Both the position numbers and the translations under genes were made by a program. A stretch of 63,968 bases of DNA, counting the filler, from Psammoneis japonica (Eukaryota), in NCBI GenBank assembly GCA_008632985.1. It is 4 parts of 4 records of this genome, joined end to end, with 100 filler letters (N's around TTAATTAATTAA, not from the genome) between each part and the next. Parts side by side here need not be neighbours in the genome. Positions count along the whole stretch, not along the records: positions 18,700 to 37,237 come from QPGO01000468.1; 3 more parts are not named here. The stretch is one strand, 5' to 3'. Under the pieces are notes generated by a model, which was not told the DNA's origin, searched no databases, and saw only the letters and a list, made by a program, of their open reading frames with translations. Shown piece after piece: positions 9,989-62,147 of the stretch. Position 1 is the first letter of the stretch, and each line of letters starts with the position of its first letter.

Positions 9989-10599
9989 AGTGCCATAAGA
10001 AAGCAAATCTCGGTTGCGCTTCAGTTCTGAATCTCGAAAGGGATGTTCTATGGACTCATAAATTCGGTCATTTGTTGCTGGAGGACGTTAGGTCACCTAG
10101 AGTGCTGTCTCCCGACTCTGAGTCAACGGCCATCTTACTGCAACATGTCCATTTCTATAATGTCTAGTTACACAATTCACATGTCTTCATTCGCAGATCC
10201 CTGTGCCCGTCGCATCGTGCCTTCACCATGAAACTGTCAGCGAACTCAGAGTAGTCGAGTCACGATTCAACGTCATTATTTGATCGCTGCTCATCACGAC
10301 GACCCAGACTCATCGACACTCATTGTTCAAATCGCTTTTTGCAAATCGCAACGACCTTGCCATGCTCTCTAGAAAACAACACTTTGAACAAATACTGTTT
10401 ACCTTTGTGCGCACTTCTATTGCAACCAACCTCAGAGAGCTCTGGAGCTTGTGTGTCAAGCTCTGTGTTGTCTCTCCATTGGCCGTTCTGCCCAGTTTGT
10501 GCACTGGTGTCAAGCTCCTTGCCAAGTTCATCACCGCAGACATTTTCTCTGAAGCAAACCCAGGAAAGCAGATGATTCCACTTTTGCCCTTCCTGTCTT

Positions 10600-18599: not shown

Positions 18600-18699
18600 N
18601 NNNNNNNNNNNNNNNNNNNNNNNNNNNNNNNNNNNNNNNNNNNTTAATTAATTAANNNNNNNNNNNNNNNNNNNNNNNNNNNNNNNNNNNNNNNNNNNN
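18600..18699. other. Artificial contig spacer
   Basis: 44 N + TTAATTAATTAA (stops in all six frames) + 44 N. Confidence 0.98.
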
Positions 18700-21600: not shown

Positions 21601-24481
21601 ACATCAGTGACGGTAGACTCAGTGCCAACAAACAGTTGGGCGCTGGTGCAACCAGAGTCGACGGCCGGGGTGTCAGCATGAACTGTGTCAGTGGCGATGG
21701 GCTCGTTGCGGCGGTGCACATTAAGGGCGGGGTTGGGCGATTTGCAGGCCTTCTTAAGGTGTGTACCGGCGGGCATGCGGGCGTACTGCGTGGTGCAGTT
21801 GAAAGTACGACGAACCGCATCGGCAGGTTGGAAGCCAAAGCAAGGCCGAAGAGACTCGAAGGGGGGTCCTTGGGCTGCACAGTGCGCTCCGGGGGCGGAA
21901 CATCGTCGTCCTTGGGGTCAATCGCGTGCAGATGACACTCGTAGAACACGTCGTCGTTCAGAATGAGGTGGTCATCGAGGGCGGATGCGTGATCGGCAGA
22001 CAAGGAGGCGGACATGATGGTCTTGTTGACAACGACACGGTGACGGTAGTTGCCGCATTCGTCAAATAGGTTGGCAGTGGGATTGTCCTGCAGGTCAGAG
22101 ATCGCGTCGTACCACTGGTCGTCATCAGTGATAGAGTGATCGAGGATGGAAGGATCCCATGTGTCATCACCGGCAAGGATGACATGGGGCAGGGTGTCCC
22201 ATTCGGCGTCAGTGTGGGGACGCATGGCAACATAAGGCAGGCCGCCCTTGATGTCAATTGGGATGACACAGCCATCAGGGGTGGTGACACGTTGCAAGCC
22301 ATTGGGCACCTTGACAGAGCGATCGTTGACATCATGTTTGTACCATTCGAGCTGGCCGCAGGAATGAATGGTCTTGCCCTTTCCCGTGTGTGCGCACTGA
22401 TGGAGGATGGCGATGACGGGACCACGCTGTGTCTCAATGACGGCACCAGCGGTGACAATGGGGATGTCCACCAATTGATGGTCGTCAATGCCCTGAACGT
22501 CCACTTGGCGAGAGGTGCGTGCAATGACGCGAACGTCATCACCAGCAATGCCGCCGTTGGCTCCACGATCGACTAGAGCACCAGTGCATGTGGAGCGATG
22601 AGCGGAGGCAGAGTGAATGACATTGTGGTTGTCAACACGGCGGTAAGTGTGGCCGTTAAGTTCTGTGTCATCTGCAGGAGCAGGCGAGGTAGAGGGAGCA
22701 GCGGATGGCCCCGGTCGACTGGCGTTGGGGGCTTGGTTAGGAGACAACAGGCGTTGCAGATCACCGGGTGGCAGTGGCTTGCGCTTGTTGAGGTGCGCCA
22801 GAATGGGATCATCTGAAGTGGCATCCACATTTGGAGCAGGGTCACCAGAGTCAGCAGGAGTTGTGTTGGACCAGTTGACATCACCGTCACTCCCAAGTCG
22901 TTGGTCGTGAAGGTTGACCGCAACGGACTCATGGTAGTTGCTGGCTCGCGGGTGGCAGGGAGGCGGACGAGAATGCTCAAGGATGATCGCCTTGGAGGAA
23001 TGGGGCAACGAATCCCAAATCTGTTGGTGGTCGGGAGGGAGACGTTTCCATTGGTCACCGGTGAGGCTGGGACCGCGGGTGTAGGCAGCGTTAGCCTGAA
23101 GGATGTCAATGTCACTGTCGATGTCATAGAACACATCATCGGATGGTTCCTCGGAGTAGACGTCGTGTGCGCATATGGAGCGTTGGGGAGCTCGAGGTGT
23201 CGTCTTGGGTTGAAACGTGCTGTGGCATTGAGCCGCCGCGGAGAGGAGCAAGCCACAATGTTGATCGTATGTGAGGCTCTTGCCACTCTGCGTGCGATGC
23301 TGATCAGCTTGGTTCTTGACGGCGCGGAGTTCCTCGACAGGATGTACGGCATTCTCGAGCATGACGCGCTTCTGCCCTTCAGAGAAGTGGTCACTGGCCG
23401 GGATGAGTGCCTCGCACTTGCGCAACTGATCTTGCCAATGAAGGATGAACCCGTGGGTCGGACCTTTCCAAGTACCATCACCAAGACGTGCGGTGGTAAG
23501 GTACGTGAGCAAGGTGGAGGGCTCGATGGAAGCGCGGGTGGAGGCGAGCGCATGCTCGGACAAGGCGCGGTAGACGGTCTGGGCGTCAGAAGACCCCACA
23601 TTTTCGCAAATGAGAGCCCTGCCCTTGTCGGTGAGAAGGATGCGTTCGAAGACGGTGAACATGCACTTTTGCTGTTCAGCAAAGAGCAGTTTGTCTTCGG
23701 GGCTGGTCGGTTTGTACGACGAGTCTAGAATGCACTCGACGTCTTGGGCACGGGCTTGTGCCACAAGTGAGGTGTGCCAAGTGTGCCACTGCTTGTTGGA
23801 TTTGAGAGCCGTGAAAGCGGTGGGGTCACGCTTGATGCCTCGCTTGAAGTCTCGCACTGGGTCGCGTGCCTTGGTCGGGTTGGTGACATGCGGAGGTGCG
23901 AGGGGCGAGCTGCCGACGGACACAGAAGACATGCAGTCGGGGCTGAGGCGGCAGGCAAGGAACTCCTCATGCGTGAACAACGAGGAGTCATTGGCAACGT
24001 CGAGACCTTTGTGTGCTTGGACAATGTACAGACTAACTAGAGCTGCTAACATGTTCTTATAACCGCGGGGCAAAGGGATCACATTAGTGCCGTTGTCGTA
24101 CTCAAGCGAGTCGATTTGGGACGGTATGAACGTGAACAGTTCTTGGCACGAGTCGGTGCCGTCATGGGTCAAAGCTAAACGAAGAGGGCTTCCAGCACCT
24201 TGGGCAAGCACGGTTCCCAACAACGTGCTCGAAAACCATCGGTTTGTTGCTGACGAGTGAGAACCATGACAGACAAAAGCGGTGTCAGGACAAGCGATTC
24301 TTGTTGGGACGCGAAGGTAGACTTGAAACTTGGGTGAGAATAGACTTGACTTGAAATGGACTTGACTTGAAATCTTGAACTATCCTAAAAAATCAGAAGT
24401 CGCCGGGGTGTGCTATCCCGTTCGTTGTTGAGTGCTAAACTTCCTATCCGGTCCGTAGAGTTGTGCCGGCACGTCCGAACC

Positions 24482-24878
24482 GACGCGTTCCAGACGCAGG
24501 TGGGAATCCGTGTGACATTGGGCCCATGGAATTCTACGTGCGAGCTCCGTAGTAAAATTATACGGTAATTGGAATGTCAATGTTCGCCAACAGAAAATGA
24601 GGCAATTTTGCGAACGCACAAACTCGCACATGATTGAAGTACATCGATTTTTACTTAGCCAGTTACATTCTTCAGACATTGAAGAATGTAACTGGCGCAT
24701 TGTTGTTTCTATAAATGCGTCATGTAAAACGTCTGGGGCTTCGCAAAACAGCAAGTCTGGACAATTTTTTTTTAAATATCACACGTAGAAATGTACGTGC
24801 GAAACATACGACGGATGATAAAAATTATTTGTGTCACACGTCGGTACTACGAGCTCCCACCTAGGGCTGGAACGCTTC
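24482..24878. mobile_element. MITE (397 bp) inserted in the 5' UTR of copia A copy 1
   Basis: Absent at the same site in copies 2 and 3 (empty site CCGAACCCGCAG). 4-bp TSD AACC. Imperfect ~24-bp TIRs GACGCGTTCCAGACGCAGGTGGGA / GAAGCGTTCCAGCCCTAGGTGGGA. Confidence 0.9.
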
Positions 24879-25606
24879 AACCCGCAGCCAGTGGCGCTTT
24901 GGGTTGCTTACGAGCGGAGTAGCGGGTTGTAAACCCCTGCAGGTAAGCTGACTAGAGGTGGACAAGACCCCCGAACCGTTCTTATTTTATGTCGGTTGGA
25001 TTTCCCGATCAGGCTGACCAGTTGACGTAGGCGTTAGGCGCTGTGGACGAACGAACAAACGCGGGAAAACACCCTCGCCCCAACGTAGGCTGTAATCACG
25101 GCTACTTGCTCTCACAGTCATCCTCGTGGACCTAGTAGAACTGTAGAGCACCAGTAGTCCGGGGTAGATCAGGTACAATAGACTCGGCGTGCTTGTAGAG
25201 TGGTAGCAAAGCCGCAGTCCAAAGAGTGGGTTCAAGTCCTTGGCCGTGAAGATATGTACACACATATGTCTCCAGCGACGAAGATCCTTGAATATGTAGG
25301 GTTCTTGACCGTTAACCGTTGAATGGGTATATCAAGGGATGAGGATCAAGGATAGACTTGGATATGACCGTTGAATGTATGTCTTCAGCGATAAAAGGTA
25401 GTATAATCAATCCAGATATCCAGCGGTAAGGAGACTTGACGGTGACGTTAACTTCCTGCCGATGCCTGGTATTGAATGCGCGTAGACTTGCCGATGTACG
25501 TAGAATATATACGGAGGTCCACGCAGAATTGAAATAGCGTCGTCGGTAAATCAACGACGACGATGGCGGTTGCTCAATGGGTTGACAATGAGCAAGACTG
25601 TTAATC

Positions 25607-25882
25607 TGACAGAAATTGAAGGCAAATGGCAAGAATTCAAACAATAACTCCTTACTGCTGTCTAAATAGCAGATGAGTCTCCGCTCAGAGACCGTCACAG
25701 GAGCGGAAAGACGTGTGAGTTGGTATAATCGGGCTGCTGTTGTTATTCTTGTGAGCCTTGTGGCTCGAAAGCAAACTACATCACGCGCGAACGCACGGAA
25801 CTAAAGCACACAAAACTGTGTGCGGTAAACTAAACAGCGCGCGACATGTCGCGCGCACCTAAATCCTGTTCAAATCCTGTCA
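25607..25882 (-). repeat. Copia A LTR (copy 1, 5')
   Basis: TGACAG...CTGTCA termini, ~276 bp, homologous to four other LTRs in the window. Confidence 0.95.
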
Positions 25883-27769
25883 GCAATGTTGTAAAAGGGG
25901 ACACGGCAATGGGGGCATTTGGGTTTGTCAGTGTTGGACCCAAGGGAGACAACGGAGGCAGAATCCAGAGGATGAGAGGAAAGAGATGTCCCACTGGGCC
26001 GGATGGGGAAGATGATTGGGTGTTGCGGTGCAAAATGTCAATGGGGAAGGGAGAACAGATGCAGCAGTGCAGTGCCGAGACAGGCAATGCTGAACATTGG
26101 TTTTGGAGTCAAAACCACATTGTCCGCAATGAGGACAACTAAAAGACTTGGTCAGAATGGCAGAATGGAGGCAGTCAGTTGTGATGTGCCTGCTGAGACC
26201 ATGTTCGGAAAAGAAACCAGTTCGTTTGCACCAAGGACAAACAAGACCATCAGACAATGTGGCCGATGCACAGAGACAAAGGAGTGTTAAAAAGAGAATC
26301 AAACAGAACAGCATGTGCAGCAACAATCACTTGGGGATTCAGTGAGTGTAGAAATGCAGGACGAGAAAAAAGGTGCGATGGGGGAAGGCACATGGAGAGA
26401 AGGATGGAATGGGCAGAGAGAGAAAATTTAGAAGGCAAGCAGAATCTACCTTGACAAATGTGTGAGGCGATTTTGACGCAGAAAATTGATTGACACACAA
26501 TCCAGAAATTAACATGCAATTAAACAAACACACAAGGCTTGTCCAAAGGGGGGCAAACAGTCAAATTGGGGAATGGAGATGTTTGTTGTTGAATGTTTGA
26601 CAATTACAAACTTGACAAATCAGCATGATCTTGGATTAAATGGAGAACATGTCGGGATTTGTTTCAAGAAATCTTTGACGGCTGGTGCAACACCTGGATC
26701 ATTGGTGTCCCAGATGTTGGTTGTGCTGTGCCAGTAAAATTTTTTGTGGGTGCTTTCTGGCTGGATGATGTGGAGGCAGCCTTCTTGCATCTAATTTGCA
26801 GCTGGTGGCAACATGTGAGAACAGCTGCACAATGTGGGTTTTGCAGGTTTGAAAAGCTGGTGGCTCACTTGAGTGTGCTGTGTTGGTCAGATTTCCTTTT
26901 GGCTGCTTGTTGCATGATGTGGAGGCAGCTTTCATGCATCTCTTGGGTGTGACTTTCTTTGCTTTGTGCAGAGTGTCACCCATTTTGTTGTTGTGTGACA
27001 AGCATCCTCACAGCTCTTGCTGGGATCTGAAAAGGCATCACCATGTGAGTGGTCTCAGGCACAACTTCTCTAGCCTGCAAAGCCCAAGAGGGCAAGTTTT
27101 TCACCGTCACAAAAACACCTTTCTGTGGCCATCCCTGGGTTTTGACATGTGTCATCATTAGAGTTTTGCACTTGGAGAGGAACAGACCACATTTTGGGCA
27201 ACAATGTGGCTCTTGTGTGACATCATTTGTTTGATCACAAAATGACATGTGCCCCCAAGGTTTTTTTAGAAAGTCCTTTGTGCTGTGCTGTTTTTGTGTC
27301 TCATTTTCACATTGATCTCATTGACATGCTCAAGGTGGGAGTTTGGCTCCATTGCACAAATGAAACATGGCACAGACAAAAAGGGTGGGGCAGTGGGAAG
27401 CTGCTGCCAGCCAGGCTCTGCAACCTCTTCCTGAGAACTGGTGCACAACACCAGCAGCTTCGTGCACATCTCTCTGAGGCTGAGGCCCTGCAGCTGACAC
27501 ATGCACCCTTTCAACTCTGTGGTGCTGCACCTGGTTCAGGGCTTCTTTCCACTGAAATTGGGGTGGCAAGGTTTGGAGTTGGGGTTGGTTGGGAATCTTT
27601 GAAAAGCGGGGGGCTTGGCTCCAAACAGAGTTGGGGGCAAGCCACTCAGGTTCACATTTTTCTCAGAGAGAGCTTTGCCAACAAGCTCCTGCAGGGTCTG
27701 GACCAACACATCCAAACCAGGGCCACTTCCAATGGAGTCATTGCCAGGAGTGGGGAACAAGCTGTCTCA

Positions 27770-28560
27770 CACCAAAGTGAATGAGCCATGAGCTGAGGGG
27801 CTGGTTTTCACACAACTGTGTGATTTTTGTGAAGGAGGCACTGCTGAACAGTTCATGCTTGAGGACTTGTGTTTTCTCTTGGTTTTTGACAAAATCATGT
27901 TCGGGTTTGTGCACCTGGCAGTGCCCTGCCAAGTTTCAACCTGACTTCAAGAAAGGCATTTTCCTTGGCTTCCTCCCCAATGCCAGCAACAATGTCACAT
28001 GGTGCAATCTCCAGGGACATCTCAGGTCAAGATGGCTGGGATGTTGTTTTTGACAAGGAGGTGAATGACTTGAGACATTGTGAGATCCTTCCAAATGATG
28101 TTGCTCAGCTCCAGCACACCCAGAGCAGTGAGCCATTCCCATCTGGTTCCTGTCTGGAGCTGCTGAAACTTCTGCCAATCATTTTCATTTTGCTGGTGAC
28201 CCCTTTGCCAAGACCACAACCCAACATTTGGACTGGCTTTCAAGACCAGTGAGCTTTTTGGTTGTGCACGTGTTTTGGGTTGTTGCAGGGTGCAATCTCC
28301 AGGGAAATCTCAAGTCAAGATGGCTCTGGGATGCTCTTTTTGACAAGGAGGTGAACAACTTTGGACATTGTGAGATCTTTCCAAATGTTGCTCAGCTCTG
28401 GCACACCCAGAGCAGTGAGCCATTCCCAGCTGGAGCTGCTGAAACTCCTGCCAATCATTTCTGTTTTGCTGGTGACCCCTGTGCCAAGACCAAAACCCAA
28501 CATTTGGACTGGCTTTCAAGACCAGTGAGCTTCTTGGATGTGCACATGTTTTGGACATCA
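27770..28560 (+). pseudogene. Copia integrase C-terminal fragment with an internal ~290-bp tandem duplication
   Basis: CPAKFQPDFKKGIFLGFLPNASNNVTWC...VVFDKEVNDL resembles the end of the 50437-51951 integrase. The unit starting TGCAATCTCCAGGGA recurs at ~28003 and ~28291. Confidence 0.65.
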
Positions 28561-29587
28561 AGCACAACAGCTCTCTGCTTTGCAACTGCTTTCTTCTCTG
28601 AAAGCTGCTCAGAACAAGATCATCATGGCTTCTCACATTGCTTCCATGATTGATGGTGTTGATGTTTTTGCATGTGAGCTGGTCCTCTCTGAGCTTCAAT
28701 GACTCAATGACACTGACAACCCTGAGTTTGAGATCATGCTTCTACCCAAGCACTGCCAAAACTCTTGAGAGCTTCAGTGTGCTTTTGTGGAACACAATTT
28801 TTTGTGCGCTGTTGGAAAATGAGGAAGAACATGTGCCTGAGGTCACAATGGAGGGTGAAAGAGCTGCCACTGCTGTTGGACTTCTGGAGTCATCACAATG
28901 GCTCTCAACAATGCAGCAATGACACCACATGTCAACCAACATGGATCATGATGCAACAGCAGGGGCACACACTTTCAGATTTCCCACATGACTCATCAAT
29001 TGTTGTGTTGCTGCCAGTGTGGTGTGGCTTGCTCATGCACAAAAAATGAACCCTTTAGAGTGTGGCCACACCTGAAAGAGTTGCTAAAAATGACTTTGGC
29101 TCAAGCTTGATGAGCACTTTGTTGGTGCCATCTGGCTTGAAGCTGCTGATGAGAACAATCTCTAGAACAGAGAACTTTGCCAGAAAAAAAACAACTTGTG
29201 CAGTTGGCAGTGACTGAAGAACAAAAGTTGGAGGAAGGCACACCTGCATTGCATCTGCTTTCAAAGCCAGAAGATGTGATTTTTGTGGTCTGTGCAGTTG
29301 TCAGTGGTCAAATGTCCAAAATCCAAATCAATCTTGGCTCTGATGAGAATGCAGAAAAAGCCCCTGACAGAAATTGAAGGCAAATGGCAAGAATTCAAAC
29401 AATGACTCCTTGCTGCTGTCTAAACAGCAGATGAGTCTCCGCTCAGAGACCGTTGCAGGAGCCGAAAGACGTGCAAGTCAGTGCAATCGGGCTGCTGTTG
29501 TTATTCTTGTGAGCCTTGTGGCTCGAAAGCAAACTGCATCGCACGCGAACACGCGAAACTAAAGAACACAAAACTGTGCGCGGTGAG

Positions 29588-32500
29588 CTAAACAGCACAC
29601 AACATTTCGCGCGCACCCAAATCCTGTTCAAATCCTGTCACTCCCCAGTTTGCTTGAGGAGCTACAGAAACAGATTCGACTTTGGATGGAATGAAGTTCC
29701 AGAACATGAGGGGGCGGAGAAGGTCCCAGAATTGGGAGTGACCCCAATGCTTGCTGAGAATGTCAGCAGGGTTGCGGGAGCCTTCGATGAAGTGGAACTC
29801 AAGGTAACCAGAGGCAATTGCCTCACGCACACGGTGGAACGACAGTGCGGTGTGTCGCTTGTGTAACTTGGAGTGCGGGATGGTGGCACTGTCTACAACC
29901 GACTTGTTGTCACCGAACATGTAACTGATGTCACGGATCGGGATGCCAAGGTAGCGCAGGGTGATGCGCAGGTCAACAATCTGCTTGACACAAGACCTTG
30001 CGGCAACAAATTCAGACCCGTAGGTCGCAGTCTCCATGGTGGCTTGCTTCTTAGAGAACCAATCAGCCGGGAATTTGTTGAGGAAGTGGAGCATTCCCAT
30101 GACAGAGCGTCCGGTGAGCATGCAATGGTACAAGTTTGCATCAACGTAGTGGGTGGTGGTGACGAACTTGCCAAGGGGCAGTGGAGCGTCCTTCGGGATC
30201 ATCTCTTCTGCTTCCCCATACACGGAATGCATCCATTCATGGGCCGGAGCAGGGAGATTCGAACAGTCCGGCTCTTCCGTGCAAACGCGGAGAGCACCGT
30301 GTCGCATCTTGGAGAGGTGCCCACAGACGCGTTTGGCACGATCCAAGTGGCCTTGACGGGGCGCAGCTCGGAAGCTAGAGAGTGACATGACGGCCGTGGC
30401 AATGTCAATTCGACCAAGGGACACTGCCCATTGGAGTGAACCAACAAGAGACTGGAACTGGTGAATGCCATCGGGCCCCAGCAGTTCGGAAGTGTCCAGT
30501 TCGGGGTGGTCACCCTTCTCCAGAGGTGACAGGGCGTTGGTGGTGGGTTTCTCCCCAAACAGTCGTGTGTAGCTGTCGACCATGCACTCGATTTACTTGC
30601 GTGGAGACGGGCACAAGGTGCCATCAGGATCCCGGGAAAAGTCGCAGCCCAGATGGAACTCAATCGGTCCCGCACCCTTGAGCTTGAACTTGCACTTTTC
30701 CGTGAGAGTGTCGACGAAAGATTGAGGGTCCTTCATGGCAATGGCGAGGTCATCCACATAAACGGCAATGCATTCGCAGTGGTCGCCGTTCCTGTGCATC
30801 CAAATGTCGGGTTCGGCGCAGCAGGGGAAGAAACCTTCAGCTCGTAGGCAGTCGGCGAAGCGCTCATGCCAGCGGAGGCCGGAGCTGTGCAGTCCATACA
30901 GGGCCTTGTGGATAACAAGGATGTGGCCTTCGAGTTTGCCAAATTCGGGTCCGGCTACAATGTAGAGCTTCTCCTTGGTTGTGGCTTCAAGGCAGGCATT
31001 GCCAATGTCGGTGGCCCATGTCTCCAACTCGTTGAGTTCGGCCAGGAAAATCATCAGCCGAAGGCCACGGAGGGAGACTACTCCAGAGTAGACACTGTCG
31101 ATGGGTACGTCCGTGAGGTGCCCATCGGCTACGAGTCGTGCCTTGTGGCGACCGTCGTGTTTCACGTCGTGCACTGGGTGCACTCGGATCTTCTTGTGTC
31201 CCGCAGGAGGAGTGGAAGACTCGGAGGGCCCGCAGTCATGGAAGACTTCGTATTCCTCGAGTTGGTCCATCTCGAGATTAGTTGCGTCTCCCCATTTGCG
31301 GTTGCCGTTGCGTTCGTCTAGTGACATGGCGTGTTTGCAGTTCCGGGGAACTTCGCATCCGTACTTGTAGCGAGGTGCAGTGCGGAAGGAGCGAAGCTTG
31401 GCTTGGTTGGCCATGCGGAACAGCTTCTTCTGGCACCTCGCGATGGTGCGGAACCGCTTCCAGCCATCAGTGTCGAGAAGTCCGTTCTCTCGTGCATAGA
31501 TGGCGCAGGTGACAGGGTCGTCCTTGGCGATGATGGCAAGAGGCTCGGACATGATCTCCCCACTTTCCCATTCAAGCACAATGTTGTAGCTTGAGCCTTT
31601 CCAGGTTGGGTCATGAGGCTTCAGAGGTCCTTCGTGTGACACAATGCGTCAAAATTTCCAAACAGCAGTGTCTTCGTCTTCTTGCTCAATGTGATTCATG
31701 ATGTCGTTGCAGGCCAGGACTTCCTCGCATTCATCGTTGTTGACAGAGCAGACGAACTTAGTGAGCTGGGGATTGCCGTTCACTTTCCATTCGTGGTCTT
31801 CAACGGCCTTGACGATGCGAGCTCTGTGGCATTGTCCGTCCTCTTGTGGCTGCATGAGGAAGGTGCGTCCGATGATGTCTTGCGGATCAAAAACTGGCAT
31901 CTTGGGTGTCCTGATCTCCCCATCAGGTGAATCGACGGGGTTGTCGTCATGGCGAGATTTGATGATGGGTTCAGGCAGCTCCCCATCAGGAGGATCAAGA
32001 CGCAGGTTTCGAACGGCAGGATCGGTGGTAGCGGATCGTACGTTGGACCGGCAGAGGATCTTCTGAGTCTCGTCAGAGAGAATCTTGAAGGTCATCTGGT
32101 GGCCGACGTGCTCCGCAATGCCAACAAAGCGTCCACGCAACTCACGGGATTCGGACGGCCAATCGGAGTCATCGAGGTGGAAGCACACGGGTTCCCACCA
32201 GTGAAAGCGAAGCAATGGGCTGATGTCTGGGGTGGAGCCAGTGAGAGTCTCGAGGGGCATGCAACAGTGGAGAAGTGGGGACGCTGTGTGGTTGAGTGTG
32301 AAGCACACGCACATGAGCGCCAGCAGCCATGTGTGGGCAGGCGAACCGAAACAATCCATGACAGTGTTCGCCATGCGCTTCACGGTCTGGTGTCGACGTT
32401 CGGCAAAGTCTTGGTGTTGCTGGTGAGGCTCACTTTGCCAGCTGGAGACAAAGAGGGCTCGTAGGATCCCGAGCACCTTGTTGCTGATCTCAACTTGAGC

Positions 32501-35257
32501 ACGGTCGCTAATGAGTTTGGATGGAGCACCACGCTCACGGATCTGATCCTCGAGTGTGTTGACAAACTCTTTGTCCGTTTTGGTGCCGTAGACATCAGTG
32601 ACGGTAGACTCAGTGCCAACAAACAGTTGGGCGCTGGTGCAACCAGAGTCGACGGCCGGGGTGTCAGCATGAACTGTGTCAGTGGCGATGGGCTCGTTGC
32701 GGTGGTGCACATTAAGGGTGGGGTTGGGCGATTTGTGGGCCTTCCCAAGGTGTGTGCCGGCGGGCATGCGGGCACACTGCGTGGTGCAGTTGAAAGTACG
32801 ACGAACCGCATCGGCAGGTTGGAAGCCAAAGCAAGGCCAAAGAGACTCGAAGGGGGGGTCCTTGGGCTGCACAGTGCGCTCCGGGGGCGGAACATCATCG
32901 TCCTTGGGGTCAATTGTGTGTAGATGACACTCGTAGAACACGTCGTCGTTCGGAATGAGGTGGTCATCGAGGGCGGACACGTGATCGGCAGACAAGGAGG
33001 CGGACATGATGGTCTTGTTGACAACAACACGATGACGGTAGTTGCCGCATTCGTTAAATGGGTTGGCAGTGGGATCGTCCTGTAGGTCAGAGATCGCGTC
33101 GCACCACTGGCAGTCGTCAGTGACAGAGTGATCAAGGACGGAAGGATCCCATGTGTCATCACCAGTGAGGATGACATGGGGCAGGGTGTCCCATTCGGCG
33201 TCAGTGCAAGGTCGCATGGCAACATGAGGCAGGCCGCCCTTGATGTCAATTGGGATGACATGGCCATCAGGGGTGGCAATGCGTTGCAAGCCGTTGGGCA
33301 CCTTGACAGAGCGATCGTTGACATCATGTTTGTGCCATTCGAGCTGGCCGCAGGAATGAATGGTCTTGCCCTTTCCCATGCATGCGCACTGATGGAGGAT
33401 GGCGATGACGGGACCACGCTGTGTCTCAATGATGGCACCAGCGGTGACAACAGGGATGTCCACCAATTGATGGTCGTCAATGCCCTGAACGTCGACTTGG
33501 TGAGAGGTGCGTGCAATGACGCGAACGTCGTCGCCAGCAATGCCGCCGTTGGCCCCACAATCGACCAGAGCACCAGTGCATGTGGAGCGATGAGAGGAGG
33601 CAGAGCAAATGACATTGTGGTTGTCAACGCAGCAGCAAGTGCGGCCGTTAAGTTCTGTGTCATCGGAAGGAGCGGGCGAGGCAGAGGGAGCGGTGGATGG
33701 CCCCGGTCGACCAGCGTTGGGGGCTTGGTTAGGAGACAACAGGCGTTGCAGATCACCGGGTGGCAGTGGCTTGCGCTTGGTGAGGTGCGCCAGGATGGGA
33801 TTGTCTGAAGTGGCATCCACATTTGGAGCGGGGTCACCAGAGTCAGCAGGAGTCGTGTTGGACAAGTTGACATCACCGTCACTCCCAAGGCATTGGTCGT
33901 GAAGGTTGGCCGTAACGGACTCATGGCAGTTGCTAGCTCGCGGGTTGCGGGGAGGCGGATGAGAATGCTCAAGGATGATCGCCTTGGAGGAATGGGGCAA
34001 TGAATCCCAAATCTGTTGGTGGTCGGGAGGGAGACGTTTCCATTGGTCACCGGTGAGGCTGGGACCGCGGGTGCAGGCAGCGTCAGCCTGAAGGATGTCA
34101 ATGTCGCTGTTGATGTCATAGAACACATCATCGGATGGTTCCTCGGAGTAGACATCATGTGCATGTGTGGCGCGTCGGGGAGCTCGAGGTGTCGTCTTGG
34201 GTTGAAACATGCTGTGGCATTGAGCTGCCGCGGAGAGGAGCAAGCCACAATGTTGATCGTATGTGAGGCTCTTGCCACTCTGCGTGCGATGCTGATCAGC
34301 TTGGTTCTTGACCGCGCGGAGTTCCTCGACAGGATGTGTGGCATTCTCGAGCATGACGCGCTTCTGCCCTTCAGAGAAGTGATCACTGGCCGGGATGAGT
34401 GCCTCGTACTTGCGCAACTGATCTTGCCAATGAAGGATGAACCCGTGGGTCGGACCTTTCCAAGCACCATCACCAAGACGTGCGGTGGCAAGGCACGTGA
34501 GCAAGGTGGAGGACTCGACAGAAGCGCGGGTGGAGGCGAGCGCATGCTCGGACAAGGCGCGGCAGACGGTCTGGGCGTCAGAAGACCCCACATTTTCGCG
34601 AATGAGAGCCTTGCCCTTGTCGGTGAGAAGGATGCATTCAAAGATGGCGAACATGCACTTTTGCTGTTCAGCAAAGAGCAGTTTGTCTTCAGGGCTGGTC
34701 GGTTTGCACGACGAGTCTAGAATGCACTCGACGTCTTGGGCACGGGCTTGTGCCACAAGTGAGGTGTGCCAAGTGTGCCACTGCTTGTCAGATTTGAGAG
34801 CGGTGAAAGTGGTTGGGTCACGCTTGATGCCTCGCTTGAAGTCTTGCACTGGGTTGCGTGCCTTGGTCGGGTTGGTGATGTGCGGAGGTGCGAGGGGCGA
34901 GCTGCCGACGGACACAGAAGACATGCAGTCGGGGCTGAGGCGGTGGGCAAGGAACTCCTCATGCGTGAACAACGAGGAGTCATTGGCAACGTCAAGACCT
35001 TCATGTGCTTTGACAATGTACAGACTAACTAGAGCTGCTAACATGTTCTTATAACCGTGGGGCAAAGGGATCACATTGGTGCTGTTGTCGCACTCAAGCG
35101 AGTCGATTTGGGAGGGTATGAACGTGAACAGTTCTTGATGCGAGTCGGTGCCATCGTGGGTCAAAGCCAAACGAAGAGGGCTCCCAGCACCTTGGGCAAG
35201 CACGGTTCCAACAACGTGCTTGAAACCATCGGTTTGTTGCTGACGAGTGAGAACCAT
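29588..35257 (-). pseudogene. Copia A gag-pol polyprotein (~1890 codons), single frame, two premature stops
   Basis: ORFs 31649..35266, 30593..31642 and 29588..30583 are in one frame. The stop at 31649 is CGA->TGA and the stop at 30593 is TAC->TAA relative to sister copies. Confidence 0.92.
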
Positions 35258-36183
35258 GGCAGACAAAAGTGGTGTCAGGACAAGCGATTCTTGTTGGGAC
35301 GCGAAGGTAGACTTGAAACTTGGGTGAGAATGGACTTGACTTGAAACAGACTTGACTTGAAATCTTGAACTACCTTAAAATCAGAAGTCGCCGGGCTGTG
35401 CTGTCCCGTTCGTTGTTAAGTGCTAAACTTCCTATCCGGTCCGTAGAGTTGTGCCGGCACGTCCAAACCCGCAGCTGGTGGCACTTTGGGTTGCTTACGA
35501 GCAGAGTAGCGGGTTGTAAACCCCTGCAGGTGAGCTGACTAGAGGTGGACAAGACCCCCGAACCGTTCTCATTTTACATCGGTTGGATTTCCCGATCAGG
35601 CTGGCCAGTTGACGTAGGCATTAGGCACTGTGGACGAACGAACAAACGCGGGAAAAACACCCTCGCCCCAATGTAGGCTGTAATCACGGCCACTTGCTCT
35701 CACAGTCGTCCTCGTGGACCTAGTGGAACTGTAGAGCACCAGCAGTCCAGGGTAGATCAGGTACAATGGACTCGGTGTGCTTGTAGAGTGGTGGCAAAGC
35801 CGTAGTCCAAAGAGTGGGTTCAAGTCCTTGGCCGTGAAGATGTGTATATATATGTATATGTCTTCAGCGACGAAGATTCTTGAATGTGTAGGGTTCTTGA
35901 CCGTTAACCGTTGAATGGGTATATCAAGGGATGAGGATCAAGGATAGACTTGGATGTGACCGTTGAATGTATGTCTTCAGCGATAAAAGGTAGTATAATC
36001 AATCCAGATGTCCAGCGGTAAGGAGACTTGACGGTGACGTTAAATTCCTGCCGATGCCTGGTATTGAATGCGCGTAGACTTGCCGATGTACGTAGAATAT
36101 ATACGGAGGTCAACGCAGAATTGAAACAGCGTCGTCGGTAAATCAACGATGACGATGGCGGTTGCTCAATGGGTTGACAATGA

Positions 36184-36198
36184 GCAAGACTGTTAATC
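36184..36198 (-). promoter_or_regulatory. Putative primer-binding site complementary to the anticodon arm of tRNA-Asn(GUU)
   Basis: GATTAACAGTCTTGC directly abuts the 5' LTR and is identical in all three copies (also 25592-25606 and 48515-48529). Its complement GCAAGACT-GTT-AATC reads as an anticodon stem-loop. Confidence 0.65.
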
Positions 36199-37237
36199 TG
36201 ACAGAAATTGAAGGCAAATGGCAAGAATTCAAACAACAACTCCTCACTGCTGTCTAAACAGCAGATGAGTCTCCGCTCAGAGACCGTTGCAGGAGCCGAA
36301 AGACGTGTAAGTCGGCACAATTGGGCCACTGTTGTCATTCTTGTGAGCCTTGTGGCTCGAAAGCAAACTACATCGCGCGCGAACGCGCGGAACTAAAGCA
36401 CACAAAACTGTGCGCGGTAAACTAAACAGCGCGACATTTCGCGCACACCCAAATCCTGTTCAAATCCTGTCAGCCCCCACTTCTTGTTTTTGGTTTCATT
36501 TTGCAGCTTGTCTTCTCACCTTGGTTTTGAGTCTTTTCTTTTTTGCATTTCTGTGCATTGTTTGAGCATGTGGGGCAGAGACCAGCAGGAAAGAAATGTG
36601 GGGCAGAGACCAGAAGTGCTGTGTTGGTTTTCTTGAAAATGCAGTGGAGTGGCCTCATGCTCTCTTCACAATGTGACAAGCTTTTGCACCAGAAATGACA
36701 TCATGAAGAGAGCCATTGCACTCTCACCTGGATCACCCAAAGTTGCCATGGTTGTCATGCTGCAAGTGCTGAGAGGAAATGAATCTTTGGCTGAAAATCA
36801 AAAGCTGTTTGGGCCAGATTCAAGCAAAAGAGCAAAGGGGTTTGCTGCCTCAAGAAGGAAGAATCGTTGAGCAGAGGTTTGTTTCATGTGAGCTCAAAGT
36901 TTTTGGAAAAGAACCCACCAGATGCTTCTCTGACAGAGTGCACACATTTGACAAAGCCAGAGTGCACAGCAGATGATGTCACACAGCCACACACAATGAT
37001 TGGCGCGGCAACTGTGATGGTTGTGTCTGTGGCCAGTCAAGTGCCAATTGTTGGCAAAACTTGGCAAACATCAAATCATCCTTTCTGCCACTGCAGTGCA
37101 GCCCCAGTGAGGAGCATTTTGCTGCTGAAACAAAAATGTTGCTGCAGCAAGAGTTGGTCCAGCTGTTCATGGCCAGCCAACTCAACCAGGGCTTGGGCAA
37201 AAATGTGAGCTTTGTGCCAAAAAGCTGCTGCAATCTC

Positions 37238-37337
37238 NNNNNNNNNNNNNNNNNNNNNNNNNNNNNNNNNNNNNNNNNNNNTTAATTAATTAANNNNNNN
37301 NNNNNNNNNNNNNNNNNNNNNNNNNNNNNNNNNNNNN
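37238..37337. other. Artificial contig spacer
   Basis: Same 100-bp N/TTAATTAATTAA/N linker. Confidence 0.98.
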
Positions 37338-40889: not shown

Positions 40890-43800
40890 TGATGGACAGA
40901 CTGTGTGCCGATGATGACCAGACCATTTGGACAGATGAGCAGATCTCTCTGAGATCTGCCTCTCACTTTCTCATCTGCCAGCACTCATGCCATCACAGTC
41001 CTGGTGCTTGGGGAGTCTTTCACACCTCTGTCATCATTGACCTTCAGCACTCTGTCAGGTTGTGGCCTCATGCTGTGCCACAGACTCTGCACCAAGCTTT
41101 CTGTCTCAATTCATTTGTTTTGTGAGCCGACCAAGCAAGCCTCGTTGTCTGTTCCAACAACATTTTTTTCTTGCTTTCCCAGCATTTTTCACGATCATAA
41201 AAACACACCAGATTTCTGCGTGTGCATGACCAAAAATGCCCTCACCAAGTGAAACCATGGCATCTCCCGACCTTGCAAAGGCCACTCCAATGTCCATTGC
41301 AGAGATCTGTCATGAATTTCAAGAACATGCAACAACACCTCATTTCCACACAACTTTGAACAAGATGCACGCGGATTCAATGTTTGATCTGGACCCGTTC
41401 TTTGATGATCCAGAACATGCTCAACCGAAGAAAGATTTTGTTGACCTGTTTTGAGATCACCTCATCAACATGGTGTTCCCACTTTGCACGGTTCATCCCA
41501 TGGACATGCAGCCTGTCAAGACAATTGTGGATCAAGCTGCATTCCACATTGTAGACTCTGCCAGGCCTCGTGCGATCCGCATGACGTCCGCATCTCTCTC
41601 GTCGATCATCAAGACCAATCTCTGGAACCACGACCAAATCATGCACGTTGTCATCTCTGCACACAACATTTACTTTGACCCCAACATGACATGGAAATGC
41701 AAGGATTGGAAGGAGTTCTCTCTCATGCCCCACCCACAGAACCCACAGCCTACACCCTCATCTACGACTGGTTCAGGACCTGCAACTGTCGGTGTGAACG
41801 ACTTAATCACCGCCCTCAACAAGTTTGCGTCGAGCAATGCTCCGCCTTCCACTGCCTCTGGCAAGCCCTCTGGAACTCCTGCAACTTCCATGGCATCCAG
41901 TGGTCTCTTCAATCCTAACACCCTGCCTCCCGATGTTCGCACATGCTGCGACTGCAAAGAACATGGTGCCGTCACCCTGAAGAGCTCCCTCGTCCATTGT
42001 GACCATGGATTCCGCCGCCACATTGATGGGTCTGACCGCATCATTCTCAATGATGGCACCCCATTTATCATGAGCTCGACCCCCGACCAGAAGATGCCAT
42101 TCAGAGAACCTCCAAACTGCCATGATGATTCTCCTGCTGGGGTGTGTGCATGGTGCCAAAATTTCCAACGTCACTCATTTGACTCGGGACACTATGTGCA
42201 TCCTTCTCGGTGCTTCACCAAGGATCACGGTGGTGAGAAGGGTTTTGAGATTGGCAACGGCTGACAGAAATTGAAGGCAAATGGCAAGAATTCAAACAAT
42301 GACTCCTTGCTGCTGTCTAAATGGCAGATGATTCTCCACTCAGAGACCGTCACAGGAGCCAAAAGACGTGCAAGTCGGCACAATCGGGCTGCTGTTGTTA
42401 TTCTTGTGAGCCGTGTGGCTCGAAAGCAAACTGCATCGCGCGCACGCGCAGAACTAAAGAGCACACAAAACTGTGCGCGGTGAACTAAATAGCGCGCAAC
42501 ATTTCGCGCGCACCCAAATCCCATTCAAATCCTGTCACTCCCCAGTTTGCTTGAGGAGTCACAGAAACAGATTCGACTTCGGATGGAATGAAGTTCCAAA
42601 ACATGAGGGGACGGAGAAGGTCCCAGATTTGGGAGTAACCCCAATGCTTGCCAAGAATGTCAGCAGGGTTGCGGGAGCCTTCGATGAAGTGGAACTCAAG
42701 GCAACCAGAGGCAATTGCCTCACGCAAACGATGGAACAACAGAGGGGTGTGTTGCTTGTGTAACTTGGAGTGCGGGATGGTGGCACTGTCCACAACCGAC
42801 TTGTTGTCACCGAACATGCAACTAATGTCACGGATCGGGACGCCGAGGTAACGCAGGGCAATGCGCAGGTCGATGATCTGCTCGACACAAGTCCTTGCGG
42901 CAACAAATTCAGACCCGCAGGTCGCAGTCTCCACTGTGGCTTGCTTCTTAGAGAACCAATCAGCCGGGAATTTGTTGAGGAAGTGGAGCATTCCCATGAC
43001 AGAGCGTCCGGTGAGCATGCAATGATGCAAGTTTGCATCGACGTAGTGGGTGGCAGTGACAAACTTGCCAAGGGGCGGTGGAGCGTCCTTCGGGATCATC
43101 TCCTCTGCTTCGCCACACACGGAATGCATCCATTCATGGGCCGGTGCAGGGAGATCCGAACAGTTGGGTTCTTCCATGTGAACGAGGAGAGCGCCATGTC
43201 GCATCTTGGAGAGGTGCCCACAGACGTGTTTGGCACGATCCAAGTGACCTTGACGGGGCGCAGCTCGGAAGCCAGAGAGTGACATGACGGCCGTGGCAAT
43301 GTCAATTCGACCAAGAGACACTGCCCATTGGAGGGAACCGACAAGAGACTGGAGCTGTTGAATGCCATTGGGCTCCAGCAGTTCGGAAGTGTCCAGTTCA
43401 GGGTGGTCACCCTTTTCCAGAGGGGACAGGACGTTGGTGGTGGGTTTCTCCCCAAACAGTCGTGTGCAGCTGTCAACCATGCATTCGATGTACTTGCGTG
43501 GAGACAGACACAAGGTGCCGTCAGGATCCCGGGAGAAGTCGCAGCCTAGATGGAACTCAATCGGTCCTGTGCCCTTGAGCTTGAACTTGCACTTTTCCGT
43601 GAGAGTGTCGACGAAAGATTGAGGATCCTTCATGGCAATGGCAAGGTCATCCACACAAATGGCAACACATTCGTAGTGGTCGCCGTTCCTGCGCATCCAA
43701 ATGTCGGGTTCGGCGTGGCAGGGGAAGAAACCTTCAGCTCGCAGGCAGTCGGCGAAGCGCTCGTGCCAGCGGAGGCCGGAGTTGCGCAGTCCATACAGGG

Positions 43801-46800
43801 CCTCGTAGATGACGAGAATGTGGCCTTCGAGTTTGCCAAATTCGGGTCCAGCTACAATGTGCAGCTTCTCCTTGGTGGTGGCTTCAAGGTGGGCATTGCC
43901 AATGTCGGTGGCCCATGTCTCCAACTCGTTGAGTTCAGCCAGGAAAATCATCAGCCGAAGGCCACAAAGGGAGACCACTCCAGAGCAGACACTGTCGATG
44001 GGTGCATCCGTGAGGTGTCCATCGGCTACAACTCGTGCCTTGTGGCGGCCGTCGTGTTTCACGTCGCACACTGGGTGCACTCGGATCTTCTTGTGTCCCG
44101 CAGGAGGAGTGGAAGACTCGGAGGGCCCGCAGTCATGAAAGACTTCGCATTCATTGAGTTGGTCCATCTCAAGATTGGTTGCGTCTCCCCATTTGCGGTT
44201 GCCGTTGTGTTTGTCTGGGGACATGGCATGTTTGCAGTTCCAGGGAACTTCGCATCTGCACTTGCAGTGAGGTGCAGTGCAGAAGGAGCGAAGCTTGGCT
44301 TGGTTGGCCATGCGGAATGGCTACTTCTGGTGCCTTGCAATGGCGCGGAACTGCTTCCAGCCATCAGTGTCGAGAAGTCCATTCTCTCATGCATAGATGG
44401 TGCAGGTGACAGGGTCATCCTTGGCGATGATGGCAAGAGGCTCGGACGTGATCTCCCCACTTTCTCATTCAAGCATGATGTTGTAGCTTGAGCCTTTCCA
44501 GGTTGGGACATGAGGCTTCAGAGGTCCTTCGTGTGACACAATTCGTCGAAATTTCCAAACAGCAGTGTCTTCGTCTTCTTGCTCAATGTGATTCATGATG
44601 TCGTTGCAGGCCAGGACTTCCTCGCATTCGTCGTTGTTGACAGAGCAGATGAACTTGGTGAGCTCGGGGCTGCCATTCACTTTCCAGTCGTGATCTTCGA
44701 TGGCCTTGACGATGCAAGCTCTGTGGCGTTGTCCATCCTCTTGTGGCTGCATGAGGAAGGTGCGTCCAATGATGTCTTGTGGATCAAAAACTGGCATCTT
44801 GGGTGTCCTGATCTCCCCATCAGGTGAATCGACGGGGTTGTCGTCATGGCAAGATTTGATGATGGGTTCAGGTGGCTCCCCATCAGGAGGATCAAGATGC
44901 AGGTTTCGAACGGAAGGATCGGTGGCAGTGGATCGTACATTAGACCAGTGGAGGATCTTCTTAGTGTCATCAGAAAGAATCATAAAGGTCATCTGGTGGC
45001 CGACGTGTTCAGCAATGCCAACAAAGCGTCCACGCAACTCACGGGATTCGGACGGCCAATCGGAGTCATCGAGGTGGAAGCACACGGGTTCCCACCAGTG
45101 AATGTGAAGCAACGAGCTGATGTCCGGGGTGGAGCCAGTGAGAGTCTCGAGGGGCGTGTGCCAGTGGAGACGTGGGGATGCTGTGTGGTTGAGCATGAAG
45201 CAAACGCACATGAGCACCAGCAGCCATGTGTGGGCAGGCAAACCGAAACAGTCCATGATGGTGTTCGCCATGCGCTTCACGGTCTGGCATCGGCGTTCGG
45301 CAAAGTTTTGGTGTTGCTGGTGAGGCTTGCTTTGCCAGCTGGAGATGAAGAGGGCTCGTAGGATCCCGAGCACCGTGTTGCTGATCTCAACTTGAGCACG
45401 GTCGCTGATGAGTTTGGATGGGGCACCACGCTCACGGATCTGATCCTCGAGTGTGTTGACAAACTCTTTGTCAGTTTTGGTGCCACAGACGTCAGTGACG
45501 GTAGACTCTGTGCCAACAAACAGTTGGGCGCTGGTGCAACCAGAGTCGACGGCCGGGGTGTCCGCACAAATGGTGTCAGTGGCGACAGGCTTGTTGTGGC
45601 AGTGCACATTAAGGGCGGGGTTGGGCGATTTGCAGGCCTTCTTAAGGTGCGTGCCGGCAGGCATGCGGGCGCATTGCGTGGTGCAGTCGAAAGTGCGACG
45701 AACCGTGTCGGTGGGTTGGAAACCAAAGCAGGGCCAAAGAGACTCGCAGGGGGGGTCCTTGGGCTGCACATTGTGCTCCGGAGGCGGAACGTTGTCGTCC
45801 TTGGGATCAATCGCGTGTAGATGACACTCGTAGAACACGTCGTCATTCGGAATGAGGTGGTCATCGAGGGCAGATGCGTGATCGGCAGACAAGGAGGTGG
45901 ACATGATGGCCTTGTTGACAATGACACGGTGACGGCAGTTGCCGCACTTGTCAAATGGGTTGGCAGTGGGATCGTCCTGCAGGTCAGAGATCGCGTCGCA
46001 CCACTGGTCGTCGTCAGTGATGGAGTGATCAAGGACGGAAGGGTCCCATGTGTCATCACCGGCAAGGATGACATGTGGCAGGGTGTCCCATTTGTCGTCA
46101 GTGCAGGGCCGCATGGCAACATGAGGCAGGCCACCCTTGATGTCAATTGGGATGACATGGCCATCAGGGGTGGTGATGCGCTGCAAGCCATTGGGCGACA
46201 AGTTGACGTCACCATCACTCCCAAGTCGTTGGTTGTGAAGGTTGACCGCAATGGACTCATGCCAGTTGCCGGCTCGTGGGTTGCGGGGAGGCGGACGAGA
46301 ATGCTCAAGGATGATCGCCTTGGAGGAATTGGGCAACGAATCCCAAATCCGTTGGTGGTCGGGAGGGAGATGTTTCCATTGGTCGCCGGTGAGGCTGGGA
46401 CCGCGGGTGCAGGCAGCGTTGGCCTGAAGGATGTCAATGTCGCTGTCGATGTCATAGAACACATCATCAGATGGTTCCTCGGAGCAGACGTCGTGTGCGT
46501 GTGTGGCACAGCGGGGAGCTCAAGGTGCCGTCTTGGGTTGAAACGTGCTGTCGTGTTGAGCCGCCGTGGAGAGGAGCAAGCCACAATGTTGATCGCATGT
46601 GAGGCTCTTGCCACTCTGCGTGCTATGTTGATCAGCTTGGTTCTTGACGGCGCGGAGTTCCTGGACAGGATGTGCGGCATTCTCGAGCATGACGCGCTTC
46701 TGTCCTTCAGAGAAGTGGTCACTGGCTGGGATGAGTGCCTCGCACTTGCGCAACTGATCCTGCCAATGAAGAATGAACCCGTGGGTTGGACCTTTCCAAG

Positions 46801-62077: not shown

Positions 62078-62147
62078 TGCAAGGTAACGAAATCTACAGA
62101 AACGAAACTACGAAATGTTGGCAGGACCGACAAATCTTAAAACGACC

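Follow-up and report, generated by a model that had tools for sequence, protein, structure and literature searches.

A stretch of 63,968 nucleotides of the Psammoneis japonica genome (assembly GCA_008632985.1), hereafter the window, contains three copies of a long terminal repeat (LTR) retrotransposon of the Ty1/copia type, all on the minus strand, and raises the question of how the two LTRs of a single insertion came to differ in opposite ways at the same sites. The LTRs of an insertion are identical at integration. In copy 2, however, two neighbouring sites that read TA in the LTR of copy 1 read TG in the left LTR (29403-29404 and 29411-29412) and CA in the right LTR (36237-36238 and 36245-36246); in copy 3 they read TG in both LTRs. 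The analysis presented here suggests that these differences are probably due to a DNA-level hypermutation that converts TpA into TpG or CpA in integrated DNA, after insertion, and that proceeds alongside a decay of CpG. The window is not one piece of a chromosome but a chain of four contigs, two of them of about 18.5 kb, and since the contigs are separated by spacers (Table 1), features on the two sides of a spacer are not genomic neighbours. Copies 1 and 2 share a contig and copy 3 lies on another one.

Opposite changes in the LTRs of one insertion

The three LTR strings reported in a first-pass annotation of this DNA (TA/TA, TG/TG and CA/CA) were all found where it had placed them, and the interval that it had delimited, 29365-36472, coincides with copy 2 to the base and spans both LTRs in full. 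The LTR of copy 1 is also, as it had proposed, the least mutated, with 12 TpA retained against 4-7 in the other four LTRs. The five occurrences of the LTR in the window compare with an expectation of 0 (100 shuffles).

In copy 2, the alignment of the LTR pair over 274 bases shows 23 differences (8.4%). The differences affect 10 of the 26 bases of the TpA class, 7 of the 38 of the CpG class, 2 of the 6 that involve only TG and CA, and 4 of the 204 remaining ones (TpA class versus other, Fisher 4e-8). The pair of copy 3 gave 8/26, 7/38, 2/6 and 12/206 for the same classes, the last figure being inflated by a misaligned indel block. LTR-pair differences are therefore enriched at TpA in both copies, as was to be expected if the first-pass annotation was correct. 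Since the LTRs of one insertion differ at TpA-class bases, these changes arose in chromosomal DNA and on both strands, in agreement with its proposal. The LTRs of copy 2 would have been identical and TpA-bearing at integration, one of them being hit later on one strand (yielding TG) and the other on the opposite strand (yielding CA).

The possibility that the left/right differences were inherited from the source copy was considered and found to be unsupported: 8 sites group the LTRs by element, 5 by position and 2 crosswise, which is the expectation of ordinary retrotransposition plus parallel changes at hot sites. Outside the hot dinucleotides the divergence of the copy 2 pair falls from 8.4% to 2.0%, and thus LTR-divergence ages are inflated about fourfold, confirming the earlier warning that LTR dating overestimates age here.

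TpA is the ancestral state and is lost with age

The alignment of the three copies has 6212 shared columns, of which 673 are variable (596 transitions versus 72 transversions). The variable columns are concentrated in the CG/TG/CA/TA family, TG<->CA exchanges make up 155 of the 188 adjacent double transitions, and the dinucleotides that are invariant across copies include 36 TpA versus 241 CpG. This alignment alone is compatible with either direction of change. Two further ways to polarise the changes were discarded: majority rule (348 C>T/G>A versus 248 T>C/A>G) is unreliable at sites hit in parallel, and in-frame stops test one direction only, since A>G and T>C never create a stop.

The reverse direction has a ready explanation. 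If CpG decay alone, or a process resembling the repeat-induced point mutation (RIP) of fungi, had acted on a CpG ancestor, TG and CA would be single C>T hits and TpA the doubly hit product, and CpG decay followed by CpA>TpA would yield an alternation of TG, CA and TA at one site. To polarise the differences we used as outgroup the first 60 of 120 listed homologs of the polyprotein, which are 50-65% identical. Among 128 nonsynonymous single-nucleotide differences tested, 73 were polarised and 55 were ambiguous. The 14 C>T changes are all in NCG and 23 of the 31 G>A changes are in CGN, which, together with four CGA>TGA stops, indicates that CpG decay is real in these copies. Only 4 of those 31 G>A changes, however, occurred in a TpG context, where the CpG-only explanation requires them. 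The rest of the polarised changes comprise 16 A>G (10 of them Tyr>Cys), 3 T>C (2 of them Tyr>His) and 9 transversions.

The conserved residues of the polyprotein are more decisive. At 33 positions where at least 70% of the outgroup has tyrosine, the 99 copy-cells contain Y in 37 cases, C in 35, H in 14, F in 8, W in 3, a stop in 1 and L in 1; that is, tyrosine codons (TAY) fixed in the outgroup read TGY or CAY in the copies, and for single codons TAC, TGC and CAC are found each in a different copy. When the count is restricted to cells where at least one copy keeps the conserved residue, tyrosine is changed in 20 of 57 cells and arginine in 25 of 141 (24 to W, C, H or Q, and 1 to L), whereas histidine (0/66), glutamine (0/42) and cysteine (0/15) are never changed and tryptophan is changed in 2 of 54 cells, neither change creating TA or CG. 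Changes that create TA or CG at conserved His, Gln, Cys and Trp thus amount to 0 of 177 cells (Fisher for the contrast, 1.6e-13). As tyrosine goes to cysteine and histidine and these four residues do not show the reverse change, TpA is ancestral and decays to TpG and CpA, and CpG decays to the same two products. The focal sites agree with this: with the rates measured here, their pattern is, as a rough estimate, about 2200 times likelier from a TpA than from a CpG ancestor. The polarity assumed in the first-pass annotation was therefore right. CpG decay or a RIP-like process as the whole explanation is ruled out by the outgroup test, and we regard it as very improbable.

The in-frame stops, eight over the copies and five of them in copy 3, include four CGA>TGA, one CAA>TAA and one TGG>TGA. 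In copy 2 the stop at 31649-31651 is TGA where the other copies have CGA, and the one at 30593-30595 is TAA where they have TAC. Stops created by C>T or G>A indicate that C>T changes happened after the element was last functional.

The loss of both dinucleotides was then counted at sites where the ancestral dinucleotide is still present in at least one copy. Copies 1, 2 and 3 have lost 29, 58 and 106 of 164 TpA sites (18%, 35% and 65%; copy 1 keeps 135 and copy 3 keeps 58) and 71, 88 and 127 of 469 CpG sites. Their total TpA content falls in the same order (137, 109 and 63), which also contradicts the CpG-only explanation, where TpA is an end product. Change outside the hot dinucleotides rises from 0.41% to 0.74% and 2.27%, so that copy 1 is the youngest and least eroded and copy 3 the oldest and most eroded. 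By our arithmetic, the ratio of TpA loss to this clock of non-hot sites is roughly constant, at about 46-58, and CpG loss follows the clock less well.

Per copy and with strands pooled, T>C at TpA reaches a transition rate of 0.198 and C>T at CpG one of 0.099, compared with 0.007-0.013 at CpC, CpT, TpC and TpT; the values for CpA and TpG are forced near zero by the ancestral-state rule and are disregarded. TpA decay is thus about twice as fast as CpG decay. The TpA rate varies with the flanking base only from 0.15 to 0.25, TAC ranking first and TAT second, with TAG and TAA about equal behind them. Both products occur in every copy, the TpA events being distributed between TG and CA as 14:15, 25:33 and 44:62 in copies 1 to 3, and hence the changes are not confined to A>G on the sense strand.

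Surrounding DNA, strand asymmetries and the reads

The DNA outside the copies is even more depleted. The interiors of copies 1, 2 and 3 have TpA observed/expected ratios (o/e) of 0.44, 0.34 and 0.19 and CpG o/e of 0.92, 0.85 and 0.78; outside them, TpA o/e is 0.00-0.27, CpG o/e 0.07-0.70 and TG/CA 1.46-1.92. Regions such as 10501-15000, 27001-28500 and 39001-40500 have only 3-6 TpA per 1500 bases, CpG o/e in old DNA is 0.05-0.3, and the depletions of TpA and CpG are correlated (Spearman 0.76 over 43 bins and 0.87 over the 26 bins outside the copies). Remnants of older transposons abound in the flanks. The first-pass annotation, which stands as regards direction and timing, was incomplete in that it had missed both the parallel decay of CpG and the stronger erosion of the flanks.

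The erosion also affects another retrotransposon family. A gypsy-type pol open reading frame (ORF) in the last contig, compared with 40 homologs picked for coverage among 150 listed, keeps none of 6 conserved tyrosines (3 C, 2 H and 1 F) but 14 of 15 arginines and 6 of 6 histidines, and its composition is 0.3% Tyr, 4.2% Cys and 4.6% His. In the repeat pair 60705/63698, 16 of 20 substitutions belong to the CG/TG/CA/TA family, including 6 TG/CA double differences.

These flanks are important to judge whether the copies could have been edited before or during retrotransposition, either as RNA at UpA by an ADAR- or ADAT-like enzyme or as single-stranded cDNA by a deaminase. ADAR enzymes do prefer a U before the edited A (10.64898/2026.01.13.699255), and A>G changes are in excess on the sense strand, both at conserved tyrosines (35 Tyr>Cys versus 14 Tyr>His, P = 0.004) and over all TpA events (110 versus 83, P = 0.06). 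Moreover, where paired LTRs show a TG/CA double difference, the left one carries TG and the right one CA in all 7 cases, which on the sense strand corresponds to TG in the 5' LTR and to CA in the 3' LTR (P = 0.016, post hoc), and in a hand classification the TpA events of the LTRs were distributed between TG and CA as 10:3 in left and 1:8 in right LTRs (Fisher 0.0075, post hoc). To judge from the textbook scheme of reverse transcription, editing of plus and minus cDNA could yield this left/right pattern. However, RNA editing is unable to make the two LTRs of one insertion differ, the unique non-element flanks are the most depleted DNA, TpA loss scales with copy age as measured at other sites, and both strands are hit throughout the elements. 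In addition, changes of this kind appear de novo in single-copy DNA resident in the genome of Bigelowiella natans, according to the available text of the preprint that describes them (10.64898/2026.01.13.699255). Editing before integration is thus distinctly unlikely, and the LTR pairs and the flanks likewise speak against ADAR-type RNA editing or reverse transcription errors as the main cause, as the first-pass annotation had argued.

The same annotation had hinted that neighbouring sites change together in processive, strand-coordinated tracts, and this was not borne out. Runs tests on the order of TG and CA along whole elements showed no clustering for TpA events (P = 0.22, 0.40 and 0.85 in copies 1 to 3) or for CpG events (P = 0.9998, 0.23 and 0.72). 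When events of both kinds were scored by the position hit on the plus strand, P was about 0.01 in copy 2 only, and copy 1 was over-dispersed. The spatial clustering of mutated TpA sites is weak (P = 0.047, 0.47 and 0.016). There is, at most, a weak regional unevenness, without strand-coordinated tracts at the scale of the element. The left/right asymmetry described above may reflect a strand bias tied to LTR position, and only in the LTRs may a residue of the tract idea persist.

A DNA-level process could also start from a lesion on thymine instead of adenine. Oxidation of T at TpA to 5-hydroxymethyluracil (5hmU) or 5-formyluracil by a dioxygenase of the TET/JBP type, followed by mispairing with G, would produce T>C; 5-formyluracil does mispair with G. 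In the dinoflagellate C. cohnii, 5hmU replaces T preferentially in TA and TC and marks silenced transposons, as stated in the available text of the source (PMC11572971). Although 5hmU favours both contexts, T>C at TpC is not raised in our copies (0.0085 versus 0.0095 at TpT). Besides, the accessible part of a base-resolution mapping in Breviolum minutum describes no sequence motif (PMC11071213), and the named relatives of the element belong to diatoms, with no sign of a dinoflagellate host. We consider the thymine route unlikely.

The sequencing reads were examined through four runs of one sample and one study, comparing the window with the Logan contigs of a public run. If modified palindromic sites were misread systematically, in the reads or in the consensus, and called as TG or CA depending on the local read strand, the outcome would mimic both the opposite resolution of the two LTRs and short same-strand runs. 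Yet contigs built from exact 31-mers, with a depth of about 35, reproduce the depleted unique flanks exactly, with 0 differences over 1407, 297, 888 and 702 letters, an agreement not to be expected of noisy reads. The copies also carry the transversions, stops and large indels typical of old insertions, and a related protein from another data set shows the same erosion of Tyr to Cys and His (see below). An artefact is therefore extremely improbable. Over the element the summed depth is 28,853-106,295 per bin; summed depth is not a copy number, but such a high value indicates that the family is very abundant. Transitions prevail at the places where the reference is contradicted by at least 10% of the depth: A>G accounts for 200 of them, T>C for 194, G>A for 124 and C>T for 90, each class of transversion reaching at most 27. 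At 21764/21765, among the 40 places listed of 768 variant ones, a set that does not include the focal LTR sites, the reference reads TA, and the first base is C in 9879 and the second G in 2695 of a summed depth of 22265.

Related loci outside the window show that the two decays can be found apart. The protein P0058, of JGI source, has Y 3, C 8, H 7 and F 3 in 22 columns of conserved tyrosine and keeps 29 of 33 conserved arginines, none being changed to C, W, H or Q, which points to TpA erosion without CpG erosion in that sequence. Conversely, among the best 80 of 263 confirmed related loci in metagenomes none has a TpA o/e below 0.46 (range 0.46-0.99), and many related copia loci from environmental assemblies (L036, L050, L018, L049, L052 and others) combine CpG o/e of 0.05-0.25 with TpA o/e of 0.56-0.70, e.g., 0.05 and 0.70 in L036 and 0.06 and 0.65 in L050. 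CpG decay alone is thus common in this lineage of elements. As many loci are depleted in CpG without a deep loss of TpA, the two decays are separable, and this genome shares its deep TpA decay with only a few others.

Several points weigh against a DNA-level hypermutation of integrated DNA, or against parts of this reading. No de novo mutation was seen, and the timing is deduced from the rule that an insertion starts with two identical LTRs; the LTR differences could alternatively stem from ectopic gene conversion among some 1000 copies. The polarity is proven only at nonsynonymous sites, in the part of the polyprotein with at least 20 aligned outgroup sequences, and elsewhere TA or CG is taken as ancestral by rule. 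The copy-cells are not independent, due to the common ancestry of the copies. The excess of A>G on the sense strand is not predicted by a purely symmetric DNA process. The run is possibly the source of the assembly itself and, in that case, not independent of systematic read error, a circumstance that favours an artefact. Finally, as regards a possible preference for foreign or silenced DNA, erosion is strongest in the unique flanks, and the one clearly uneroded ORF of the four contigs seen, an FG-GAP repeat ORF (2.3% Tyr, 0.1% Cys; TpA o/e of its region 0.42-0.47), could be protected by selection alone.

The coordinates of the features are collected in Table 1. LTRs of 274-278 bp ending in TGACAG...CTGTCA, a 5-bp target-site duplication and a polyprotein with an RVT_2 domain (Pfam, 7.1e-26, minus strand, copy 2) identify the element, as judged from its sequence, as a Ty1/copia LTR retrotransposon of the kind found in diatoms. 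In copy 3 the duplication reads ACGGC (42257-42261) and ACAGC (48808-48812), with one CpG>CpA difference, and a purine-rich tract (reverse complement of 29641-29648) adjoins the LTR of copy 2 on the minus strand. The polyprotein contains what we take to be the protease, YVDD and C-terminal ADILSK-type motifs. It has 721 homologs at E <= 0.001 among 7365 candidates, which carry PF07727; those named among the best 120 come from the diatoms Fistulifera solaris and Nitzschia sp. and from two metagenome bins labelled as bacteria. The 1241-aa ORF of copy 2 gave no Pfam match to integrase or gag at E <= 0.001, and RVT_2 was the only family found in the 16 ORFs tested of this copy, possibly because of the erosion.

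Table 1. Position, strand and main characteristics of the features of the window
Feature	Position	Strand	Characteristics
Contig-join spacers	18600-18699, 37238-37337, 55811-55910		N44-TTAATTAATTAA-N44
Copy 1	18700..25882	-	Truncated by contig start, left LTR missing; self-BLAST, LTR alignment
Copy 1 LTR	25607-25882	-	Focal TA at 25645-25646 and 25653-25654
Copy 2	29365..36472	-	Complete, both LTRs; self-BLAST, LTR alignment, RVT_2
Copy 2 left LTR (3' LTR of element)	29365..29640	-	4 TpA remaining
Copy 2 right LTR (5' LTR of element)	36199..36472	-	6 TpA remaining
Copy 2 target-site duplication	29360..29364 and 36473-36477		GCCCC, perfect 5-bp, read directly
Copy 2 polyprotein frame	29591..35374	-	1928 codons, two in-frame stops
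Copy 3	42262..48807	-	LTRs 42262-42537 and 48530-48807
Unique flank between copies 1 and 2	26840..29364	.	Nearly free of TpA and CpG; 27001-28500: 3 TpA, 5 CpG
Gypsy-type pol ORF	59760..62093	-	Pfam RT_RNaseH_2, Integrase_H2C2, rve, RVT_1; last contig
FG-GAP repeat ORF	7385-9985	+	867 aa

The copies differ as well in large indels. Copy 1 has about 401 bp (24482-24880) that are absent in copies 2 and 3 and that lie in the most TpA-rich part of the window (TpA o/e 0.84 in 24001-25500), and the run contigs show at 24554 TA-rich loose ends that belong to other members of the family. Copy 3 has an internal deletion of 561 bp (alignment columns 3936-4497). In run X1 a contig of depth 70 connects 29273 with 36745 and leaves out the 7471 bases between them, the whole of copy 2 included. 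It could represent a version of the locus that lacks the insertion, but 2 other letters stand at the junction and the shorter side spans only 25 letters. Many long ORFs are found on both strands in overlapping frames, e.g., 31649-35374, 32380-34716 and 19572-21917, all three on the minus strand, and 13 such overlapping ORFs of copy 2 matched no Pfam family at E <= 0.01.

In the flanks, 4 of 24 ORFs belong to Pfam families, namely FG-GAP_2, the gypsy-type pol, another copia-type fragment and a kinase-like ORF. The FG-GAP repeat ORF has 11 homologs at E <= 0.001 among 8000 scored candidates (27-36% identical), several of which carry PF18962, presumably a domain for secretion sorting that is typical of bacteria; where they have a named source it is bacterial, as with one Facilibium protein. 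The ORF may derive from a bacterial gene. A tandem duplication of about 425 bp (1028-1452/1453-1877, 98.8% identity) has 3 substitutions, including one TG/CA double and one CA/CG difference.

Related processes and biological meaning

The closest process that we have found described is that of B. natans, whose preprint, as far as its available text goes, is the only description found of TpA-directed mutation of DNA (Mettrop et al., 10.64898/2026.01.13.699255). In mutation-accumulation lines of this chlorarachniophyte, two integrated viral regions received 231 of the 302 nuclear point mutations, at a rate of about 6e-7 per site per generation (10.64898/2026.01.13.699255). With a single exception these mutations were A>G or T>C, every such change being at TpA, and they appeared only in some lines; TpA-poor coding sequences were enriched for reverse-transcriptase and DDE domains, and the authors propose a DNA adenine deaminase similar to ADAT2 (10.64898/2026.01.13.699255). 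The window shares with B. natans the change of A>G or T>C at TpA, giving TpG or CpA according to the strand, in resident chromosomal DNA, as well as the long-term depletion of TpA with enrichment of CpA and TpG. By this analogy of specificity and footprint, the process described here would belong to the same kind.

There are also differences. In B. natans the mutations were seen directly in lines and at two viral insertions, whereas here they are deduced from diverged copies, although polarity, dinucleotide specificity, action on both strands, timing after integration and scaling with age can be observed in these. In the window the process affects at least two families of LTR retrotransposons, together with flanking DNA that carries no annotation. 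Furthermore, CpG decay runs alongside, whereas the available main text of the preprint makes no mention of CpG, LTRs, retrotransposons or processivity.

Fungal RIP resembles the process in acting on DNA through dinucleotide-specific transitions, in degrading repeated or foreign DNA and in inflating LTR divergence. Its polarity is the opposite: RIP consists of C:G>T:A changes, with CpA as the main target in most fungi according to the available text (PMC2621366), and thereby would create TpA, whereas TpA is destroyed here by A:T>G:C changes and CpA/TpG>TpA changes of the RIP kind are absent (the 0/177 above).

Decay of CpG by deamination of 5-methylcytosine is known from the methylated transposons of plants, vertebrates and many protists, and the CpG changes of the window resemble it in going to TpG or CpA on either strand and in the low CpG o/e of old DNA. 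It leaves TpA untouched, however, so that, acting alone, it does not account for the loss of TpA. With the editing by APOBEC3 and ADAR in animals the process shares a nearest-neighbour preference and the hypermutation of retroelements, but that editing acts on cDNA or RNA before integration, on one strand, and its changes are shared by both LTRs, unlike what is found here, where the changes distinguish the two LTRs of an insertion, fall on both strands and extend to DNA outside the elements.

Taking these data together, we propose the following model for the hypermutation of integrated DNA. Young copies would arrive with near-normal TpA and CpG and would erode with age towards the state of the surrounding silent DNA, TpA becoming TpG or CpA through A>G on one strand or the other of chromosomal DNA. 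The end state would be DNA in which TpA and CpG are almost gone and TG/CA are 1.5-1.9 times the expectation. As to the chemistry, a DNA-acting deaminase of the ADAT2/TadA kind would most likely convert the adenine of TpA to hypoxanthine, with deamination of 5-methylcytosine as the probable route for CpG, and the targets would be silenced or foreign DNA rather than the whole genome.

These results indicate that the phenomenon is real and rare, having been described once before, in 2026. They extend to LTR retrotransposons a process previously seen in integrated viral DNA, with the LTR pairs as an internal proof of change in chromosomal DNA. They also provide an age series of three points in which TpA is lost, by our arithmetic, about 50 times faster per site than the rest of the same copies changes, and they display the end state, a DNA nearly without TpA and CpG. 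On the negative side, the changes do not come in long same-strand tracts.

The practical consequences are several. In such genomes LTR-divergence ages are inflated about fourfold, and eroded elements escape domain searches, as copy 2 illustrates with its single recognised domain. Since the loss of TpA removes TAA and TAG stops, old repeats look coding and fill with long false ORFs on both strands, which is the likely cause of the long ORFs of the window.

A more far-reaching possibility, which we consider rather unlikely, is that TpA and CpG, the two self-complementary dinucleotides of a pyrimidine followed by a purine, are both cleared from foreign DNA by a single system coupled to silencing, one candidate being a single ADAT2-like deaminase of A and C. 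This system would operate outside the chlorarachniophytes, the named relatives of the element being from diatoms. ADAT2-like enzymes that deaminate both A and C in DNA have been described in amphioxus and, partly, in trypanosome, according to the available text of the preprint (10.64898/2026.01.13.699255). If this were true, TpA-directed editing would be a widespread defence of protists, with a footprint that could be read in any assembly.

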